Assembly: GCF_003334315.1 (NCBI RefSeq)
Contig: NZ_QOWR01000077.1
Reading direction: 5' to 3' (one strand)
Length of the DNA: 14,750 nucleotides
DNA from: Escherichia coli
Lineage (GTDB): Bacteria > Pseudomonadota > Gammaproteobacteria > Enterobacterales > Enterobacteriaceae
This document shows positions 391 to 9,390 of the stretch, piece by piece. The notes beneath the pieces were generated by a model. The model ran no database searches and was not told the origin of the DNA. It was given only the letters and a program-made list of their open reading frames with translations. Position 1 is the first letter of the stretch, and every line of letters starts with the position of its first letter. The position numbers were made by a program, and so were the translations under genes.

Positions 391-442
391 TTAAAGCGAT
401 TGTAAGCTAATGTATGTAATAAATGAGATAATTTACAGTAAG

Positions 443-478
443 CTAAAAATCAGCCAGGCGATAATGACCTGGCTGATA
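443..478 (-). terminator. Rho-independent terminator directly downstream of the yeaH stop
   Basis: Perfect 10-bp stem ATCAGCCAGG (449-458) / CCTGGCTGAT (468-477) with a 9-nt loop. On the minus-strand RNA it is followed by UUUU (plus-strand A-run 445-448). It starts 4 nt after the yeaH stop codon (482-484). Confidence 0.7.
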
Positions 479-481
479 GTT

Positions 482-1777
<1,296 letters not shown>

Positions 1778-1877
1778 CTACATTTGCCAACTGTATGCTA
1801 CGCCTGTGTTGCCGCTTCTCAGGCCCACGGTTCGCTGTCGTTGTAGGCCCAGTAACATGTGTACCGGGCCAGGGTTG

Positions 1878-3812
1878 TTAAGACGATTTACGTACGCGCA
1901 AATACCATTCGCACAGTAAACGCACCTGTTTACGGGTGTAGCCTTTTTCCATCATACGGTCGACAAAGTCGTCGTGTTTCTTCTGCTCGTCGGTTGACGT
2001 TTTGGCGTTAAACGAGATAACCGGCAACAGCTCCTCGGTATTGGAGAACATTTTCTTCTCGATGACCGTGCGCAGTTTTTCATAGCTGGTCCAGTTCGGA
2101 TTGCGTCCGCTGTTATTCGCTCTGGCGCGCAGTACGAAGTTAACAATCTCGTTGCGGAAATCTTTTGGATTACTGATCCCCGCCGGTTTCTCGATTTTCT
2201 CCAGCTCGGCGTTAAGAGACTCGCGGTCAAACAGCTGCCCGGTATCCGGATCGCGATACTCCTGATCCTGAATCCAGAAATCCGCGTAGGTAACATAACG
2301 GTCGAAAATGTTTTGCCCATATTCGGAATAGGATTCAAGGTAGGCCGTCTGGATCTCTTTGCCGATAAACTCGGCATATTTCGGGATCAGATAACCTTTC
2401 AGGAACTCCAGATAGCGTTCTGCCTGCTCTTGTGGGAACTGCTCGCGCTCAATCTGCTGTTCCAGGACGTAGAACAGATGGACCGGGTTTGCTGCCACTT
2501 CTACATGAGCGAAGTTGAACACGCGGGAGAGGATCTTAAACGCAAAACGCGTCGACAGACCGTTCATCCCTTCATCGACACCGGCGTAGTCACGATATTC
2601 CTGATACGACTTGGCTTTGGGATCGGTGTCTTTCAGACTTTCGCCATCATAAACCCGCATCTTTGAATAAATGCTGGAGTTTTCTGGCTCTTTCAGGCGC
2701 GAAAGAATGGAAAAACGTGACAGTGTTTCGAGCGTGCCAGGGGCGCATGGGGCGTGAGTCAATTCACTGTGATTAAGCAATTTCTCGTAGATTTTGATCT
2801 CTTCGGAAATGCGCAAGCAATACGGCACCTTCACGATGTAAACACGATCGAGGAAGGCTTCGTTGTTTTTGTTATTACGGAAAGTGACCCATTCGGACTC
2901 GTTCGAGTGTGCGAGAATAATCCCGTTGAACGGCAGGGCGGAGATACCTTCCGTCCCGTTGTAGTTACCTTCCTGAGTGGCGGTTAACAAGGGATGCAGC
3001 ACTTTAATCGGTGCTTTAAACATCTCAACGAATTCCATGATCCCCTGATTGGCGCGGCACAGCGCACCGGAATAGCCGTAGGCGTCCGGGTCATTCTGCG
3101 CGTAGTGTTCGAGTTTACGAATATCGACTTTCCCAACCAGCGCGGAGATGTCCTGGTTGTTCTCATCGCCGGGTTCCGTTTTGGCGATAGCAATTTGTTG
3201 CAGAATTGACGGCCAGACCTTCACTACCCGGAACTTAGTGATATCGCCACCAAATTCATGCAGGCGTTTTGCCGCCCACGGCGACATGATGGTGCCGAGA
3301 TAACGGCGAGGAATGCCATACTCTTTTTCCAGAATCTGCGCATCTTCCTGCGGATTGAAAAGACAGAACGGATGATCGTTGACCGGGCTACGCTCACCGT
3401 TCGCGCTCAATACATAAATCGGTACGAGCTGCATTAATGATTTCAGTCGCTCAGCAAGCGATGATTTACCCCCACCCACAGGCCCCAGCAGATACAGGAT
3501 TTGTTTCTTCTCTTCCAGCCCCTGAGCCGCGTGTTTCAGATAAGAGACAATCTGTTCAATCGCGTCTTCCATGCCGTAAAACTCTTCAAACGCCGGATAA
3601 CGTGCAATGACCCGGTTAGAAAAGAGTCGAGAAAGTCTGGGTTCCTGGGCTGTATCGACCATGACAGGCTCACCGATAGCCATCAATAGCCGCTCAGCCG
3701 CGTTGGCATAAGCACTGCGATCTTGCCGACAAGTGGTAAGAAACTCCTGCAGTGTGAACTCTTCGTCCTTGGCAGCTTCATATCGCTGGCGATAGTGATC
3801 GAATATATTCAT
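1878..3812 (-). CDS. yeaG: YeaG, PrkA-family serine protein kinase with an AAA-type ATPase fold
   Basis: 644-aa ORF beginning MNIFDHYRQRYEAAKDEEFTLQEFL, with a Walker A motif GPVGGGKSS. Length and sequence match my recollection of E. coli YeaG. An AAGGA SD sits ~8 nt upstream of the ATG. Confidence 0.95.
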   Translation of the reverse strand: MNIFDHYRQRYEAAKDEEFTLQEFLTTCRQDRSAYANAAERLLMAIGEPVMVDTAQEPRLSRLFSNRVIARYPAFEEFYGMEDAIEQIVSYLKHAAQGLEEKKQILYLLGPVGGGKSSLAERLKSLMQLVPIYVLSANGERSPVNDHPFCLFNPQEDAQILEKEYGIPRRYLGTIMSPWAAKRLHEFGGDITKFRVVKVWPSILQQIAIAKTEPGDENNQDISALVGKVDIRKLEHYAQNDPDAYGYSGALCRANQGIMEFVEMFKAPIKVLHPLLTATQEGNYNGTEGISALPFNGIILAHSNESEWVTFRNNKNNEAFLDRVYIVKVPYCLRISEEIKIYEKLLNHSELTHAPCAPGTLETLSRFSILSRLKEPENSSIYSKMRVYDGESLKDTDPKAKSYQEYRDYAGVDEGMNGLSTRFAFKILSRVFNFAHVEVAANPVHLFYVLEQQIEREQFPQEQAERYLEFLKGYLIPKYAEFIGKEIQTAYLESYSEYGQNIFDRYVTYADFWIQDQEYRDPDTGQLFDRESLNAELEKIEKPAGISNPKDFRNEIVNFVLRARANNSGRNPNWTSYEKLRTVIEKKMFSNTEELLPVISFNAKTSTDEQKKHDDFVDRMMEKGYTRKQVRLLCEWYLRVRKSS

Positions 3813-3915
3813 GGTATGCCGTCCTTTCGTTTTTTAGCACAGGTTAAGAGCCGTTCATATGAATAGTAGAGGCTCCCGGAAGAGGTAAACTGAACGACGT
3901 CTCTTGCTAAAACAC

Positions 3916-3931
3916 AGCAACTCTCATGCCA
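3916..3931 (-). promoter_or_regulatory. Candidate sigma54 (RpoN) -24/-12 promoter for yeaG-yeaH
   Basis: Minus strand reads 5'-TGGCATGAGAGTTGCT-3' (reverse complement of 3916-3931), matching the TGGCAC-N5-TTGCW consensus with the GG and GC dinucleotides correctly spaced. The predicted start is near plus-coordinate 3905, about 90 nt upstream of the yeaG ATG. Confidence 0.55.
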
Positions 3932-4247
3932 TTTTATCGACGATGAGAACAACGTGCCCGGTGATACACCTTCAAAATTAAGCGTAGATGGCAAATGGAA
4001 AACTTGCCTGCACGGCTTTCTTAATTTCAATGGCATATCAACAACTCATCCATAAATTTTGCATAATTAATGTAAAGACCAGGCTCGCCAGTAACGCTAA
4101 ATTCATTTGGCTGTAAGCGCGGTGTCATCCGCGTCAGGAAAATTAAACAGTTACTTTAAAAAATGAAAACGTAAAAAGGTTGGGTTTCGATGTATTGACG
4201 GGTAAACTTTGTCGCCCGCTAAACATTTGTTTAAGGAATGATTAATT

Positions 4248-4994
4248 GTGACCAAACTCAAACTTCTGGCACTTGGAGTGCTTATCGCAACGTCTGCAGG
4301 CGTAGCGCACGCTGAAGGTAAATTTTCCCTGGGCGCAGGCGTAGGTGTCGTTGAACACCCATATAAAGATTACGATACCGATGTTTACCCAGTACCGGTA
4401 ATCAACTATGAAGGCGATAACTTCTGGTTCCGTGGCTTAGGTGGTGGTTACTACCTGTGGAATGACGCAACGGATAAACTTTCAATTACCGCTTACTGGT
4501 CGCCGCTTTACTTCAAAGCGAAAGACAGTGGCGATCACCAAATGCGTCACCTGGATGACCGTAAGAGCACCATGATGGCTGGTCTGTCTTATGCTCACTT
4601 TACCCAGTACGGTTACCTGCGTACCACCCTGGCTGGCGATACCCTGGATAACAGCAACGGCATCGTCTGGGATATGGCCTGGTTGTATCGTTACACCAAC
4701 GGTGGCCTGACCGTGACTCCGGGTATTGGTGTGCAGTGGAACAGCGAAAACCAGAACGAATACTATTATGGCGTATCGCGCAAAGAGTCCGCTCGCAGCG
4801 GTCTGCGTGGCTATAACCCGAACGACAGCTGGAGCCCTTACCTGGAGCTGAGCGCCAGCTACAACTTCCTCGGCGACTGGAGTGTTTACGGTACCGCACG
4901 CTACACCCGTCTGTCTGATGAAGTTACTGACAGCCCGATGGTGGATAAATCCTGGACTGGCCTGATTTCTACCGGGATCACCTACAAATTCTGA
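4248..4994 (+). CDS. mipA: MipA, MltA-interacting outer-membrane scaffold protein (OmpV/MipA family)
   Basis: 248-aa ORF starting at GTG 4248 (MTKLKLLALGVLIATSAGVAHA-EGK, a typical signal peptide). Length and sequence match MipA as I recall it. AAGGA SD at 4234-4238. Confidence 0.93.
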   Translation: MTKLKLLALGVLIATSAGVAHAEGKFSLGAGVGVVEHPYKDYDTDVYPVPVINYEGDNFWFRGLGGGYYLWNDATDKLSITAYWSPLYFKAKDSGDHQMRHLDDRKSTMMAGLSYAHFTQYGYLRTTLAGDTLDNSNGIVWDMAWLYRYTNGGLTVTPGIGVQWNSENQNEYYYGVSRKESARSGLRGYNPNDSWSPYLELSASYNFLGDWSVYGTARYTRLSDEVTDSPMVDKSWTGLISTGITYKF

Positions 4995-5023
4995 TAATGC
5001 ATCTTTCCAGGGCATTTTGTGCA

Positions 5024-5051
5024 TAAAAACAGGGCGTCACGCCCTGTTTTG
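5024..5051 (+). terminator. Rho-independent terminator downstream of mipA
   Basis: Stem CAGGGCG (5030-5036) / CGCCCTG (5040-5046) with loop TCA, followed by TTTT (5047-5050). An A-run precedes the stem, so it looks bidirectional. Confidence 0.7.
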
Positions 5052-5083
5052 CATTACGGTGGTGCAATACCTGGGAGGAAACA

Positions 5084-5938
5084 ATGCAACAAAAAATGAT
5101 TCAATTTAGTGGCGATGTCTCACTGCCAGCCATAGGGCAGGGAACATGGTATATGGGCGAAGATGCCAGTAAGTGTAAAACAGAAGTTGCTGCACTACGC
5201 GCGGGCATTGAGCTCGGTTTAACCCTCATTGATACCGCCGAAATGTATGCCGATGGTGGTGCCGAAAAGGTGGTTGGGGAAGCATTAACCGGTCTGCGTG
5301 ATAACGTCTTTCTCGTCTCTAAAGTCTATCCGTGGAATGCTGGCGGGCAAAAAGCGATAAATGCATGCGAAGCCAGTTTACGCCGTCTCAATACTGATTA
5401 TCTCGATCTCTACTTATTACACTGGTCTGGCAGTTTCGCTTTTGAAGAGACTGTCGCAGCGATGGAAAAATTGATCGCCCAGGGAAAAATCCGCCGCTGG
5501 GGCGTTTCGAACCTTGATTATGCTGATATGCAGGAACTCTGGCAGCTGCCGGGGGGAAATCAGTGTGCCACTAATCAGGTGCTTTACCATCTCGGTTCAC
5601 GAGGGATTGAGTACGATCTACTCCCCTGGTGCCAGCAACAGCAGATGCCGGTGATGGCTTACAGTCCGTTAGCCCAGGCCGGGCGGTTGCGCAATGGACT
5701 GTTAAAAAACGCGGTAGTCAACGAAATTGCACATGCTCACAATATCAGCGCGGCGCAAGTATTGTTGGCGTGGGTAATCAGCCATCAGGGTGTGATGGCG
5801 ATTCCAAAAGCGGCCACGATTGCCCATGTCCAACAGAATGCGGCTGTGCTTGAGGTCGAACTTTCGTCAGCGGAATTAGCCATGCTGGACAAAGCGTATC
5901 CGGCACCAAAAGGAAAAACTGCGCTGGATATGGTGTGA
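5084..5938 (+). CDS. yeaE: YeaE, aldo-keto reductase (NADPH-dependent methylglyoxal reductase family)
   Basis: 284-aa ORF, the length I recall for YeaE. Strong SD GGGAGGA 6-12 nt upstream of the ATG. Confidence 0.93.
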   Translation: MQQKMIQFSGDVSLPAIGQGTWYMGEDASKCKTEVAALRAGIELGLTLIDTAEMYADGGAEKVVGEALTGLRDNVFLVSKVYPWNAGGQKAINACEASLRRLNTDYLDLYLLHWSGSFAFEETVAAMEKLIAQGKIRRWGVSNLDYADMQELWQLPGGNQCATNQVLYHLGSRGIEYDLLPWCQQQQMPVMAYSPLAQAGRLRNGLLKNAVVNEIAHAHNISAAQVLLAWVISHQGVMAIPKAATIAHVQQNAAVLEVELSSAELAMLDKAYPAPKGKTALDMV

Positions 5939-5947
5939 TGTTGATAC

Positions 5948-5972
5948 GTGCCGGATGCATCGCACCCGGCAC
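5948..5972. terminator. Hairpin in the convergent yeaE / yeaD 3' intergenic region (weak terminator candidate)
   Basis: GTGCCGG (5948-5954) pairs with CCGGCAC (5966-5972) around an 11-nt loop. There is no clear U-tract on either strand, so this is a structural call only. Confidence 0.3.
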
Positions 5973-5988
5973 ACAACATTGACGCAAA

Positions 5989-6873
5989 TTAACGTTTGGC
6001 AACGCGAATGGATTGCGCCAGATGTGCAGGTTTTTCTTTGGTCACTTTTTGCATTTCTGAGGCGTAAGCTGTTTCTACACAAACAAAGGTCTTGTAGCCA
6101 TCGTCCGGCATGTCGCCCATGCTAACTGAAAGCGCCGGTCCCGGGTTCCAGCCTACAACGTTCAGATGATGCTGGTGGCCTACGGCGATAATACGATTCA
6201 GCGCTTCATCATTAATCACGCTGCAATCTTGCGGATTCAGATACACGCGATCGGTACGGTCAGGGAAGGTCTGAATACCGTCGGTCAGTACATCTTCTTT
6301 CGCGTCATTTACTTTATCAATGAAGCGATCGCCCAGCCCACTGACGCTTACCTTAGCGATATCACCCACGTTAAAGTAGGTATGCAGGGCAGAGGTGGTT
6401 TCAAATTCGCCGTGTGCTTCAAGATCGATTTCACAGGTTTTACCCACGCGGAAATGCGCTAACAGAGTAAAGTCGTGCGGCCAGAATTTTTTCGTCTCTT
6501 CGCTTTGTGTCAATTCAAAAGTCAGCGCTACGCCATTAGCATCTTCACGATGTGATTTCAGCGTCCACGGCAGGTTGCGGGCAAAACCGTGCGCAGGCAG
6601 GCCTTGTTGTGCCGCCGGACCAAACCACGGCCAGCAAACCGGTACGCCACCGCGAATAGCGATGCCATTTTTGAACGGTGTGTTGTTGCTCAACCACAGA
6701 ACTTCTTCTTCACCCGCAGGTTTCCACGAGAGAAGGTGTGCGCCCTGTAATGCAAAAGAGGCTTTTACCTGGGGATGATCGACCACAATGAGGTCCAGTT
6801 CATCCAGTTTACGACGGGAGAGGACAGGGGAGATTTGTTCGATGACCGGAAGGGCAAAAATTTTCTTAATCAT
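5989..6873 (-). CDS. yeaD: YeaD, putative D-hexose-6-phosphate mutarotase (glucose-6-phosphate 1-epimerase family)
   Basis: ORF track gives 301 aa from ATG 6894. I place the start at the internal ATG 6873 (MIKKIFALPV..., 294 aa), which matches YeaD as I recall it and has an AAAGGA SD 7 nt upstream. Confidence 0.88.
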   Translation of the reverse strand: MIKKIFALPVIEQISPVLSRRKLDELDLIVVDHPQVKASFALQGAHLLSWKPAGEEEVLWLSNNTPFKNGIAIRGGVPVCWPWFGPAAQQGLPAHGFARNLPWTLKSHREDANGVALTFELTQSEETKKFWPHDFTLLAHFRVGKTCEIDLEAHGEFETTSALHTYFNVGDIAKVSVSGLGDRFIDKVNDAKEDVLTDGIQTFPDRTDRVYLNPQDCSVINDEALNRIIAVGHQHHLNVVGWNPGPALSVSMGDMPDDGYKTFVCVETAYASEMQKVTKEKPAHLAQSIRVAKR

Positions 6874-6904
6874 GACGCAGTCCTTTAACTTCATTTTATC
6901 AGGT

Positions 6905-6935
6905 AAAAAAAAGAGCGACCGAAGTCGCTCTTTTT
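6905..6935 (-). terminator. Rho-independent terminator of gapA, looks bidirectional
   Basis: Minus-strand RNA reads AAAAAGAGCGAC-UUCG-GUCGCUCUUUUUUUU: an 8-bp GC-rich stem with a UUCG tetraloop and a long U-tract, 22 nt after the gapA stop. The plus strand carries the mirror A-run/T-run. Confidence 0.8.
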
Positions 6936-6956
6936 AGATCACAGTGTCATCTCAAC

Positions 6957-7964
<1,008 letters not shown>

Positions 7965-8159
7965 CTATTTGTTAGTGAATAAAAGGTTGCCTGTAAAATT
8001 ACAAAAACCTTACGCAGCGTCAAGCGGAATCGTGTCAATCATTGCGACAAATCAATCCTGTGCCTAAGCATTACGCGACTGACTCGCCTCACTCTTCCTT
8101 TGGGCTTGAAACCACATGGGGTCGGCGCCCCGAATTTTAAAGGGCAATTACGATAAAAA

Positions 8160-8175
8160 TGTGATTTTCATCACG
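8160..8175. promoter_or_regulatory. CRP-like binding site in the gapA / msrB divergent intergenic region
   Basis: TGTGA-TTTTCA-TCACG at 8160-8175 matches the CRP core consensus TGTGA-N6-TCACA at 9 of 10 positions. It lies ~215 bp upstream of the gapA ATG and ~120 bp upstream of the msrB ATG. Confidence 0.4.
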
Positions 8176-8242
8176 ATTTAGGTGCAGCCATTTCGTCGAG
8201 ATCAAGTTTAGGACAAAATTTTGCCAGTTGGTGTTAATGTTT

Positions 8243-8251
8243 TGTTAGAAT
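8243..8251 (+). promoter_or_regulatory. Candidate extended -10 promoter element for msrB
   Basis: TGTTAGAAT at 8243-8251 (TGn + TAGAAT, 5 of 6 to TATAAT), ~43 nt upstream of the msrB ATG. A TTGCCA -35-like hexamer at 8221-8226 is 19 bp away, which is a suboptimal spacer. Confidence 0.35.
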
Positions 8252-8293
8252 CAGTCACGTAATGTGAGCACGATTAAAGTGAGATGTGAGCAA

Positions 8294-8707
8294 ATGGCTA
8301 ATAAACCTTCGGCAGAAGAACTGAAAAAAAATTTGTCCGAGATGCAGTTTTACGTGACGCAGAATCATGGGACAGAACCGCCATTTACGGGTCGTTTACT
8401 GCATAACAAGCGTGACGGCGTATATCACTGTTTGATCTGCGATGCCCCGCTGTTTCATTCCGAAACCAAGTATGATTCCGGCTGTGGCTGGCCCAGTTTC
8501 TACGAACCGGTGAGTGAAGAATCCATTCGTTATATCAAAGACTTGTCACATGGAATGCAGCGCATAGAAATTCGTTGCGGTAACTGTGATGCCCATCTGG
8601 GGCATGTCTTCCCTGACGGGCCGCAGCCAACGGGCGAACGTTATTGTGTTAACTCTGCCTCTTTACGCTTTACCGATGGCGAAAACGGCGAAGAAATCAA
8701 CGGTTGA
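8294..8707 (+). CDS. msrB: Peptide methionine-(R)-sulfoxide reductase MsrB
   Basis: ORF track gives 147 aa from 8264. I place the start at ATG 8294 ([33 protein letters not shown]..., 137 aa). It carries the two CxxC zinc motifs (CLIC, CGNC) and the catalytic Cys context RYCVNSASL. Confidence 0.95.
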
Positions 8708-8748
8708 AAAAACGATTCAGCAACTTATTCCACAGGAGCGGAAAAATT

Positions 8749-9021
8749 ATGAATCTTGATGACATTATCAACAGCATGACGCCTGAGGTATACCAGCGTT
8801 TGTCGACCGCCGTTGAACTGGGGAAATGGCCCGATGGCGTTGCGTTGACCGAGGAACAAAAAGAGAACTGCCTGCAACTGGTGATGCTGTGGCAAGCCCG
8901 CCATAATACCGAAGCACAGCATATGACAATTGACACAAATGGTCAGATGGTCATGAAGAGCAAACAGCAGTTAAAAGAAGATTTTGGTATCTCAGCAAAG
9001 CCTATTGCCATGTTTAAGTAA
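8749..9021 (+). CDS. yeaC: YeaC, DUF1315 family small protein
   Basis: ORF track gives 105 aa from 8704. I place the start at ATG 8749 (MNLDDIINSMTPEVYQRL..., 90 aa) with SD CAGGAG at 8733-8738. It lies 41 bp downstream of msrB on the same strand. Confidence 0.9.
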   Translation: MNLDDIINSMTPEVYQRLSTAVELGKWPDGVALTEEQKENCLQLVMLWQARHNTEAQHMTIDTNGQMVMKSKQQLKEDFGISAKPIAMFK

Positions 9022-9027
9022 GTGGTT

Positions 9028-9060
9028 TATCCCCTTTTTGCCGCGGTTATAAAGGGGATA
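9028..9060. other. Perfect 10-bp hairpin directly after the yeaC stop, with no U-tract
   Basis: TATCCCCTTT (9028-9037) pairs with AAAGGGGATA (9051-9060) around a 13-nt loop that contains the palindrome CCGCGG. Neither strand has a following T-run. Confidence 0.45.
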
Positions 9061-9255
9061 GCCAACAATGACCCCACGACTCATCTCAATTATCTCGCCA
9101 TGACCTGGCTAAGTCCCAGTCCGATCTCTTGCCGTCGCGTTCACGCCTGAATGACTTCTCCTGAACTTAAGTCTCAGACCTATTTGGCCGGTAATCCCTC
9201 TCGAATTTGCTCTTTTTGCGTTCCGCCTTCCACCAACCTGTAACAGACCCAGCCA

Positions 9256-9315
9256 TTTTCTGCGTAATTGTGATCTAAGTTGTAAAACGCAGATCATTAT
9301 CTGTGTTTTGCAGAT
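9256..9315. promoter_or_regulatory. Cluster of overlapping dyad symmetries (TCTGYR / YRCAGA half-sites) upstream of ydjL; candidate operator or activator site
   Basis: Half-sites TCTGCG (9260-9265, plus), CGCAGA (9288-9293), TCTGTG (9301-9306) and TGCAGA (9309-9314). They include the 26-bp near-palindrome AAAACGCAGAT-CATT-ATCTGTGTTTT (9284-9309) with 10 of 11 arm matches. The cluster sits just upstream of a TTGACC hexamer at 9322-9327. Confidence 0.3.
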
Positions 9316-9321
9316 TTAATG

Positions 9322-9350
9322 TTGACCTCAAAAATCATGTGGGTAAGTAT
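9322..9350 (+). promoter_or_regulatory. Candidate sigma70 promoter for the ydjL operon (good -35, weak -10)
   Basis: TTGACC at 9322-9327, a 17-bp spacer, then AAGTAT at 9345-9350 (3 of 6 to TATAAT). The ydjL ATG is at 9391 with SD AGAGGA at 9377-9382. The weak -10 would fit an activator-dependent promoter. Confidence 0.25.
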
Positions 9351-9390
9351 GATGGCCATCTAAGCAAAACAAAACACAGAGGATGACGCA

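Follow-up and report, generated by a model that had tools for sequence, protein, structure and literature searches.

Which signals switch on the kinase operon yeaG-yeaH, and from where on the DNA does NtrC act on its promoter? We addressed both questions in a stretch of 14,750 nt of Escherichia coli DNA, called the window here. On its minus strand lie yeaG (1878..3812), which encodes a PrkA-type kinase of 644 aa (protein kinase YeaG in the annotation of matching E. coli genomes), and yeaH (482..1765; 427 aa), the second gene of the operon. A spacer of 435 nt separates yeaG from the divergent mipA (4248..4994, plus strand), which is followed on the same strand by yeaE (5084-5938) and then, in this order, by yeaD, gapA, msrB, yeaC, and ydjL to ydjH. 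The segment 3700-4300, annotated yeaG / mipA, is 100% identical to K-12 strains and was found in all 5426 complete E. coli genomes.

A preliminary description of this DNA had proposed a sigma-54 -24/-12 element with correct GG/GC spacing upstream of yeaG, and this element is confirmed. It reads ATGGCATGAGAGTTGCT (yeaGp) and occupies 3916..3932 of the minus strand, with the GG at 3930-3929 and the GC at 3918-3917. Its minus-strand context is ...AAAATGGCATGAGAGTTGCTGTG..., and the yeaG-strand reading of the spacer is ...GATAAAATGGCATGAGAGTTGCTGTGTTTTAGC... The 16-mer TGGCATGAGAGTTGCT covers 3916-3931 (3916-3932 once the flanking A is counted) and differs from the consensus TGGCACGNNNNTTGCW, which has the form TGGCACG-N4-TTGCW, by one mismatch (C to T). 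No other sequence in the window matches this consensus with one mismatch or fewer. The transcription start is predicted at 3905 on the minus strand because a spacing of 12 nt after the GC is assumed. With this start, the spacing is canonical (GG at -25/-24, GC at -13/-12) and the leader is 93 nt long, counted to the yeaG ATG at 3812. As the 3' end of the motif is 103 nt from the ATG, the earlier estimate of about 90 nt was fair. The predicted start agrees with the entry "Distance 93" of a published sigma-54 site described below and with a published 5'UTR boundary at -93. A published 5'-end mapping for yeaGp was not found in the literature, and the EcoCyc status of the promoter is "predicted".

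The element was scored with a sigma-54 matrix trained on 41 intergenic E. coli sites verified by ChIP-seq (Bonocora 2015, Table 1), with the yeaG site excluded. It reaches 15.9 bits, which is about the median of the verified sites (16.0; range 8.9-21.4) and the top score on both strands of the window. A score of at least 15.9 bits is reached somewhere in 11% of random 14.75-kb sequences of the same composition. Hence, the sequence alone is suggestive, not decisive, and the weight comes from position and conservation. The site lies on the yeaG strand within the spacer, which makes up about 1.5% of the search space, and its orientation and position (same strand, intergenic, 93-nt leader) fit a promoter that drives yeaG.

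Conservation was followed within and beyond the species. Of the 5426 E. coli genomes, 5425 contain the 51-nt surround of the element, and in 4351 it is exact. For the wider comparison, we scanned 80 loci that encode relatives of YeaG over the 500 nt before the start codon. In 13 named genera, a motif of 14-17.7 bits, with the sequence TGGCAYNNNGGGTTGCT in nearly all cases, was found 78-138 nt before the yeaG ATG, namely in Escherichia, Citrobacter, Pseudescherichia, Pluralibacter, Superficieibacter, Enterobacter, Kosakonia, Erwinia, Serratia, Rahnella, Pantoea, Dickeya, and Tatumella. The distance to the ATG is 226 nt in Brenneria, and two Yersinia loci carry a 13-14-bit motif about 500 nt upstream of yeaG. 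Among Enterobacterales loci with a divergent mipA, 26 of 28 have the motif at a threshold of at least 12 bits (scores found, 12.9-17.7). The 500-nt scan gave no motif in Edwardsiella, a Pseudocitrobacter MAG, an insect-symbiont Pantoea, and two other loci, nor in any Vibrio, Photobacterium, Shewanella, Aeromonas, Alteromonas, Pseudoalteromonas, or Rheinheimera locus scanned; YeaG is still 82-89% identical in these loci from outside the Enterobacterales. The full -24/-12 consensus is kept across the Enterobacterales, among genera whose flanking non-coding DNA no longer aligns.

The promoter, its occupancy by sigma-54, and its link to NtrC are all already known and are no discovery of ours; that the promoter had been catalogued was missed in the preliminary description. 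The same 17-mer is the sigma-54 ChIP-seq site OS18 (FAT 6; motif centre 1,864,820, plus strand, b1783 yeaG, distance 93), which carries the flag "P" for EcoCyc predicted (Bonocora 2015). In Salmonella LT2, the same 16-mer at STM1285 was bound by sigma-54 in ChIP-chip with a signal of 4.1 (Samuels 2013). Compared with K-12 yeaGp as given by EcoCyc, OS18, and the STM1285 site, the window shows the same sequence, strand, position, and gene context, and no difference. The earlier claim that yeaGH is induced under nitrogen starvation in an NtrC-dependent manner is supported by published induction and NtrC target data. The yeaG mRNA is induced at nitrogen run-out and was termed NtrC and sigma-54 activated (Figueira 2015), an NtrC ChIP-seq peak for yeaGH lies at 1,864,821-1,864,901 (Brown 2014), and nitrogen-starved cells show ChIP-seq signals of both NtrC and RNA polymerase at the yeaG promoter. 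Two adjacent yeaGH promoters, dependent on sigma-54 and sigma-38, have been described (Switzer 2018; McQuail 2024). Published work has already securely established yeaGp as a functional sigma-54 promoter that depends on NtrC and lies downstream of a sigma-S promoter.

Three observations speak against the assignment. The constitutive activator DctD250 raised yeaGH only 2.5-fold in a Salmonella microarray, a Salmonella yeaG reporter was no lower in a delta-rpoN strain (both Samuels 2013), and the yeaG site was not recovered in gSELEX with the sigma-54 holoenzyme in vitro. The reporter result can be explained because the fragment contains other promoters, and a tandem layout with a sigma-S promoter masks rpoN dependence. 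Taken together, the motif upstream of yeaG is very probably yeaGp, the NtrC-dependent sigma-54 promoter of the yeaG-yeaH operon.

The preliminary description also missed that a strong sigma-S promoter precedes yeaGp and that the two form a tandem, with yeaGp in the downstream place. We aligned 24 Enterobacterales yeaG upstream regions and found conserved islands amid otherwise unalignable DNA, which comprise a sigma-S box, the sigma-54 box, and blocks in the leader. Sigma-S promoters are characterized by an extended -10 element with a C at -13 and a downstream TAA (approximately TCTAYRCTTAA) and by a weak -35 element. The sequence CTACGCTTAA at 3978..3987 of the minus strand looks like a sigma-S (sigma-38) extended -10 by its resemblance to this consensus, with an expected start near 3974, and it lies within the island ...GCAAGTTTTGCAAATGCCATCTACGCTTAA. 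Slightly extended, CATCTACGCTTAA at 3990-3978 fits the features of a sigma-S extended -10 and is conserved across the Enterobacterales; in the alignment, the -10 box can be followed from Escherichia to Dickeya, Serratia, and Erwinia. It was found via conservation, and a generic sigma-70 scan returned no minus-strand promoter in the yeaG-mipA spacer. The assignment of CTACGCTTAA as a putative sigma-S -10 fits the strong rpoS dependence of Salmonella yeaG, whose expression falls about 220-fold in a delta-rpoS strain.

The sigma-54 element is located 50-100 nt downstream of the conserved sigma-S -10 box, and this order is common to the Enterobacterales alignment. As the sigma-S start is upstream of the sigma-54 element, sigma-S transcripts should cross the sigma-54 promoter. 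Similar combinations are known from glmY, glmZ, and rpoH, which have sigma-54 and extra sigma-70-type promoters (Samuels 2013). Like yeaGH, they combine two promoter classes per operon, and in both cases sigma-54 dependence is masked in reporter assays. In contrast to these tandems, the partner promoter of yeaGH is strongly sigma-S-dependent (about 220-fold in Salmonella), and the order of sigma-S before sigma-54 is conserved. The arrangement is shared across the Enterobacterales and is absent from other gamma-proteobacteria despite a YeaG identity above 82%, which suggests that nitrogen control of this kinase operon dates to the Enterobacterales.

Where, then, does NtrC bind? The preliminary description had noted the lack of a convincing NtrC dyad upstream, and our scans agree: there is none in 3950-4250. 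A core-pattern search for an NtrC dyad in the yeaG-mipA spacer gave nothing, and the NtrC consensus TGCACCAnnnTGGTGCA, with up to 3 mismatches allowed, has a single match in the whole window, which is outside this spacer. For a quantitative comparison, we located the dyads of eleven other NtrC-dependent sigma-54 promoters of MG1655 and constructed a symmetric NtrC matrix. Over the 320 nt upstream of the sigma-54 motif, these eleven promoters have best scores of 4.9-20.0 bits; seven of them reach 14-20 bits, and four held-out promoters reach 10.5, 10.1, 8.2, and 4.9 bits. The corresponding region of yeaG scores 0.2 bits, the lowest of the 12 NtrC-dependent promoters, and 98% of the shuffles of the spacer between the sigma-54 motif and mipA do better. 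Among the orthologous loci, too, none has an NtrC box that reaches 10.5 bits in the 600 nt upstream. Activator sites usually lie 70-250 bp upstream, where yeaGp has none; this placement is typical rather than absolute, since enhancers act at a distance. The comparison with glnAp2 illustrates the point. Both promoters have a -24/-12 element, depend on NtrC, and are arranged in tandem with an upstream promoter for another sigma factor. In glnAp2, however, two strong NtrC dyads (19.3 and 18.6 bits) are located 89 and 121 nt upstream of its sigma-54 motif, whereas yeaGp has no dyad within 320 nt and is separated from its best candidates by about 1.15 kb and an entire gene.

The earlier statement that the enhancer is unassigned thus holds for the proximal region, but a concrete candidate exists at 4998-5066, beyond the range considered there. 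It is a cluster of NtrC-like boxes 3' of mipA, so that mipA lies between the sigma-54 promoter and the boxes. Box 3, TGCATTACGGTGGTGCA (5050..5066), has 2 mismatches to TGCACCAnnnTGGTGCA and scores 13.2 bits, more than any other NtrC-like site of the window. Its end is 17 nt from the yeaE ATG, and its centre lies upstream of the sigma-54 start by about 1153 bp. Box 2, TGCATAAAAACAGGGCG (5020..5036), is weak (8.7 bits) and lies 30 nt from box 3, measured from centre to centre. Box 1, TGCATCTTTCCAGGGCA (4998..5014), is weak in E. coli (7.8 bits) and strong in other genera, for example in Serratia (TGCACAATATTTGTGCA, 16.3 bits). Embedded between the candidate boxes is the intrinsic terminator of mipA, a hairpin CAGGGCG-TCA-CGCCCTG plus TTTT (5030..5050, plus strand), and the right half of box 2 is at the same time the left arm of the terminator stem.

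NtrC enhancers comprise two or more 17-bp dyads of the type TGCACCAnnnTGGTGCA, set apart by whole helical turns. E. coli has one good and two weak boxes with centres 30 and 22 nt apart, and other genera have 2-3 boxes of 11-16 bits in the same arrangement. The 30+22-nt phasing is also found in Enterobacter, Serratia, and Dickeya. Enterobacter has three boxes, Serratia grimesii has three with 11.6, 12.7, and 16.3 bits, and Dickeya has boxes of 14.6 and 11.9 bits; the same layout occurs in Pluralibacter, Rahnella, Brenneria, Erwinia psidii, Tatumella, and Pantoea. In most loci, the boxes are 1070-1200 nt upstream of the sigma-54 motif, and in Citrobacter FP75 and P. stewartii the distance is about 1280-1330 nt. 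The 28 loci together have 44 boxes of at least 10 bits, and 34 of these are located within 140 nt after the mipA stop, a segment that accounts for 8% of the scanned positions (p = 2e-28, without correction for shared ancestry). Such a box follows mipA in 19 of the 26 loci with the sigma-54 motif. Both loci that have no sigma-54 motif also have no boxes, a coincidence seen in two loci only (p = 0.095).

The box region is bound by NtrC in vitro and has been assigned to yeaE before. An NtrC gSELEX peak at 1,863,654, together with a yeaE gel-shift probe, was attributed to this gene (Shimada 2021); in the window, the peak corresponds to about position 5090, some 30 nt from box 3. According to a 2023 study in NAR Genomics and Bioinformatics, which combined ChIP-exo and RNA-seq, yeaE belongs to the direct NtrC regulon, for which both a binding site at most 300 bp upstream and differential expression were required, and is the only gene down-regulated by NtrC. 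By inference from this regulon definition, NtrC is present in vivo near the yeaE start. Repression fits the geometry because box 3 ends so close to the yeaE ATG. Two published reports disagree on the direction in which yeaE responds to NtrC, and a separate NtrC peak at yeaE is not reported in the ChIP-seq data of Brown 2014. The boxes are equally kept in six loci without yeaE, in which a convergent yeaD adjoins mipA; Serratia grimesii is an example of a species that lacks yeaE. Hence, they must have another role as well. We looked for a sigma-54 promoter of yeaE or of another gene near the boxes, and this idea was dropped: motifs of 10 bits or more are not found there repeatedly across the loci, and the two sporadic matches overlap the boxes. 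The only conserved sigma-54 promoter in reach of the boxes is yeaGp.

We tentatively favour, with slightly less than even confidence, a model in which yeaGp has no proximal NtrC sites and may instead be served by the two or three boxes 3' of mipA, about 1.15 kb upstream, through DNA looping; the comparative support for this model is good. Its wider form is a shade more doubtful. Here, a remote NtrC enhancer 1.1-1.3 kb upstream, beyond mipA and interleaved with its terminator, would be conserved from Escherichia to Serratia, Dickeya, and Erwinia, and the same boxes would repress yeaE where this gene is present. That NtrC sites act from afar is known from the classic moved-enhancer experiment, going by its citation in the relA paper. 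The relA promoter, which is also targeted by NtrC, is a further parallel, since NtrC binds far from this gene, at 649-838 bp upstream of the RelA start codon (Brown 2014). In contrast to yeaGp, binding at relA was demonstrated by gel shift and tied to the promoter, whereas the link of yeaG to the distant boxes is only inferred.

The NtrC peak at yeaG could appear to place the enhancer at the promoter itself. We therefore calibrated the ChIP-seq coordinates of Brown 2014 on the 12 promoters common to the Brown and Bonocora tables. At these promoters, the centre of the NtrC peak is -11 to +48 nt from the centre of the sigma-54 motif; for astC, the peak is still on the sigma-54 motif, although the dyads are 214-234 nt upstream. 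As all 12 peaks sit on the sigma-54 motif, the Brown peak at yeaG marks the promoter and not the location of the enhancer, and these coordinates were rejected for placing it.

The main rival to the remote enhancer accepts yeaGp as real but dispenses with a dedicated enhancer: once accumulated, NtrC would act from solution or through weak contacts, and the boxes would only repress yeaE. We regard this as rather unlikely, although several findings agree with it. Proximal boxes are missing at yeaGp, and the DNA-binding-deficient DctD250 gives some activation from solution in Salmonella (Samuels 2013). The boxes end immediately before yeaE, the one gene found to be down-regulated by NtrC in the ChIP-exo and RNA-seq study, and in Citrobacter FP75 they travel with yeaE and stay beside it rather than beside mipA, which fits a yeaE-specific role. 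The missing NtrC peak at yeaE in Brown 2014 counts both for this explanation and against the remote enhancer. Further points against the latter are the 7 of 26 motif-bearing loci in which no box of the region reaches 10 bits, the joint absence of motif and boxes in two loci only, and the conflicting direction of the yeaE response. On the other side stand the six loci that keep the boxes without yeaE.

A different explanation concerns the sigma-54 site itself. It could be mainly non-productive or modulatory, with the bound holoenzyme forming a roadblock or occluder for sigma-S transcripts, and induction under nitrogen starvation would then run via ppGpp and sigma-S, with relA as the NtrC-dependent step. 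The location of the site downstream of the sigma-S start, the Salmonella reporter that is equal or higher in delta-rpoN, and the strongly sigma-S-dependent expression are compatible with this. Moreover, repression by promoter-bound sigma-54 holoenzyme has been proposed at some promoters (Shimada et al.), and many sigma-54 sites are not known to be productive (Bonocora 2015). However, DctD250 raised yeaGH 2.5-fold in an rpoN-dependent comparison, NtrC gives a ChIP signal on yeaGp as it does at bona fide NtrC promoters, the full consensus is kept across the Enterobacterales, and the authors of four studies treat yeaGp as activated by NtrC and sigma-54. A roadblock is therefore improbable. That the motif is a functionless chance match is hardly conceivable: the random rate of 11% given above would allow it, but sigma-54 occupies the site in vivo in two species and the motif has been retained between genera in which the surrounding non-coding DNA is unalignable, so that ChIP data and conservation refute this view.

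With the remote enhancer as the preferred model, regulation of the operon may be pictured as follows. As shown by others, sigma-54 RNA polymerase binds the GG/GC element as a closed complex, and phosphorylated NtrC drives open-complex formation at nitrogen run-out. Transcription would start about 12 nt after the GC, at 3905 in the window, and yield a 93-nt leader containing the pairing site of the sRNA SdsR. The upstream sigma-S promoter (-10 at 3987-3978) probably fires about 70 nt further upstream and would read through yeaGp. In this way, yeaGH could answer general stress and stationary phase via sigma-S and nitrogen starvation via sigma-54 and NtrC. The mipA-distal boxes, where yeaE is present, sit on the start region of this gene and would repress it. 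If these boxes are indeed the enhancer, they would represent one of the few natural cases of a bacterial enhancer that acts across a gene over kilobase distances, and one NtrC cluster would both repress locally (yeaE) and activate at long range (yeaGp). This could help to reconcile the reports of NtrC at the yeaG promoter (ChIP-seq) with those at yeaE (gSELEX and the ChIP-exo-defined regulon).

The alignment of the 24 regions points to further conserved elements of the control region. The block GATGAGTTGTTGATATGCCATTGAAATT (GATGAGTTRTTGATATGYCATTGAAA in the alignment) at 4023..4050 of the minus strand is situated at about -50 to -75 relative to the putative sigma-S start, or at about -120 to -145 relative to that of sigma-54. 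It was rejected as an NtrC site because GCAC/GTGC half-sites are missing; its opposite strand carries an IHF-like core with 1 mismatch. Between the sigma-S -10 and the sigma-54 -24, a palindrome, GGTGTATCACC (3960..3970, minus strand), is conserved in Enterobacteriaceae. A structured RNA in the yeaG leader was considered and rejected, since the window has no Rfam match anywhere and the leader folds no better than its shuffles (z = -0.05). The leader contains the conserved blocks CTTCCGGGAGCC, ACCTGTGCT, and AAAACGAAAGGACGG. Of these, ACCTGTGCT is the SdsR pairing block: the 5'UTR sequence CCTGTGCTAA at 3834..3843 of the minus strand, -31 to -22 from the AUG, is the published pairing site of this sRNA, and the pairing positions were reported together with a reporter validation in the same paper that gives the 5'UTR boundary at -93.

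The non-coding region upstream of yeaG is most strongly conserved in the block GATGAGTTRTTGATATGYCATTGAAA (4023-4050, minus strand). On the opposite strand, the block differs from an IHF core at one position. In Serratia and Rahnella, it takes the form of a 6-4-6 palindrome, AGTCAT-TGAT-ATGACT. Upstream of the block, GATGAC/ATGAA repeats (GATGACA...ATGAAT...; 4080-4160, minus strand) recur at a spacing of ~11-20 nt and are partially conserved in Enterobacteriaceae. These motifs may be direct-repeat sites for a regulator. Closer to yeaG, Escherichia, Citrobacter, and their relatives share the conserved palindrome GGTGTATCACC (3960-3970, minus strand), which is flanked by the sigma-S -10 box on one side and the sigma-54 -24 element on the other. 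The yeaG upstream control region of the loci from Vibrionales, Alteromonadales, and Aeromonadales (L032-L080) has no recognisable likeness to the enterobacterial one; the amino acid identity of YeaG itself is unusually high, at 82-89% between E. coli and Alteromonas/Shewanella.

Two further sigma-54-like motifs are found on the plus strand. TTGGCATAAGCACTGCG (3703-3719) scores 13.2 bits and lies within yeaG in antisense orientation; this string was not found in the text of the study from which the sites for our matrix were taken (Bonocora 2015). CTGGCACTTGGAGTGCT (4266-4282) scores 9.3 bits and lies among the first codons of mipA in sense orientation. In two Yersinia loci (L023 and L028), which are without the proximal sigma-54 motif of yeaG, a sigma-54-like motif of 13-14 bits is present at locus positions 999-1016. 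It is oriented toward yeaG, ~500 nt upstream of the gene, within the region encoding the MipA signal peptide on the opposite strand.

In the mipA-yeaE spacer, the cluster of NtrC-type dyads (4998-5066) and the mipA terminator are interleaved; the last base of the cluster lies 17 nt 5' of the yeaE ATG. The cluster is kept across Enterobacterales, including loci without yeaE. In Citrobacter sp. FP75 (L003), the NtrC boxes still adjoin the yeaE start and are set apart from mipA by an insertion of ~200 nt (locus positions 100-320) that carries its own terminator. C. youngae (L004) carries a different insert, and no NtrC boxes were found inside its fetched range. Published data on the direction of the NtrC effect on yeaE are in conflict, as expression was raised 3.1-fold by NtrC in one study (Shimada 2021) and lowered in a ChIP-exo and RNA-seq study from 2023.

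Two inverted copies of IS1 (1-390 and 14298-14687) flank the chromosomal segment; their ORFs match the transposase family of IS1, and the arms are 390 nt each and 97% complementary. On the right, ydjH appears to be truncated by the IS1 copy, as its ORF in the window comprises 181 aa and the K-12 gene is presumably longer. The left copy ends ~90 nt past yeaH. Some genomes match 391-14750 only; hence, the left IS1 insertion is strain-specific.
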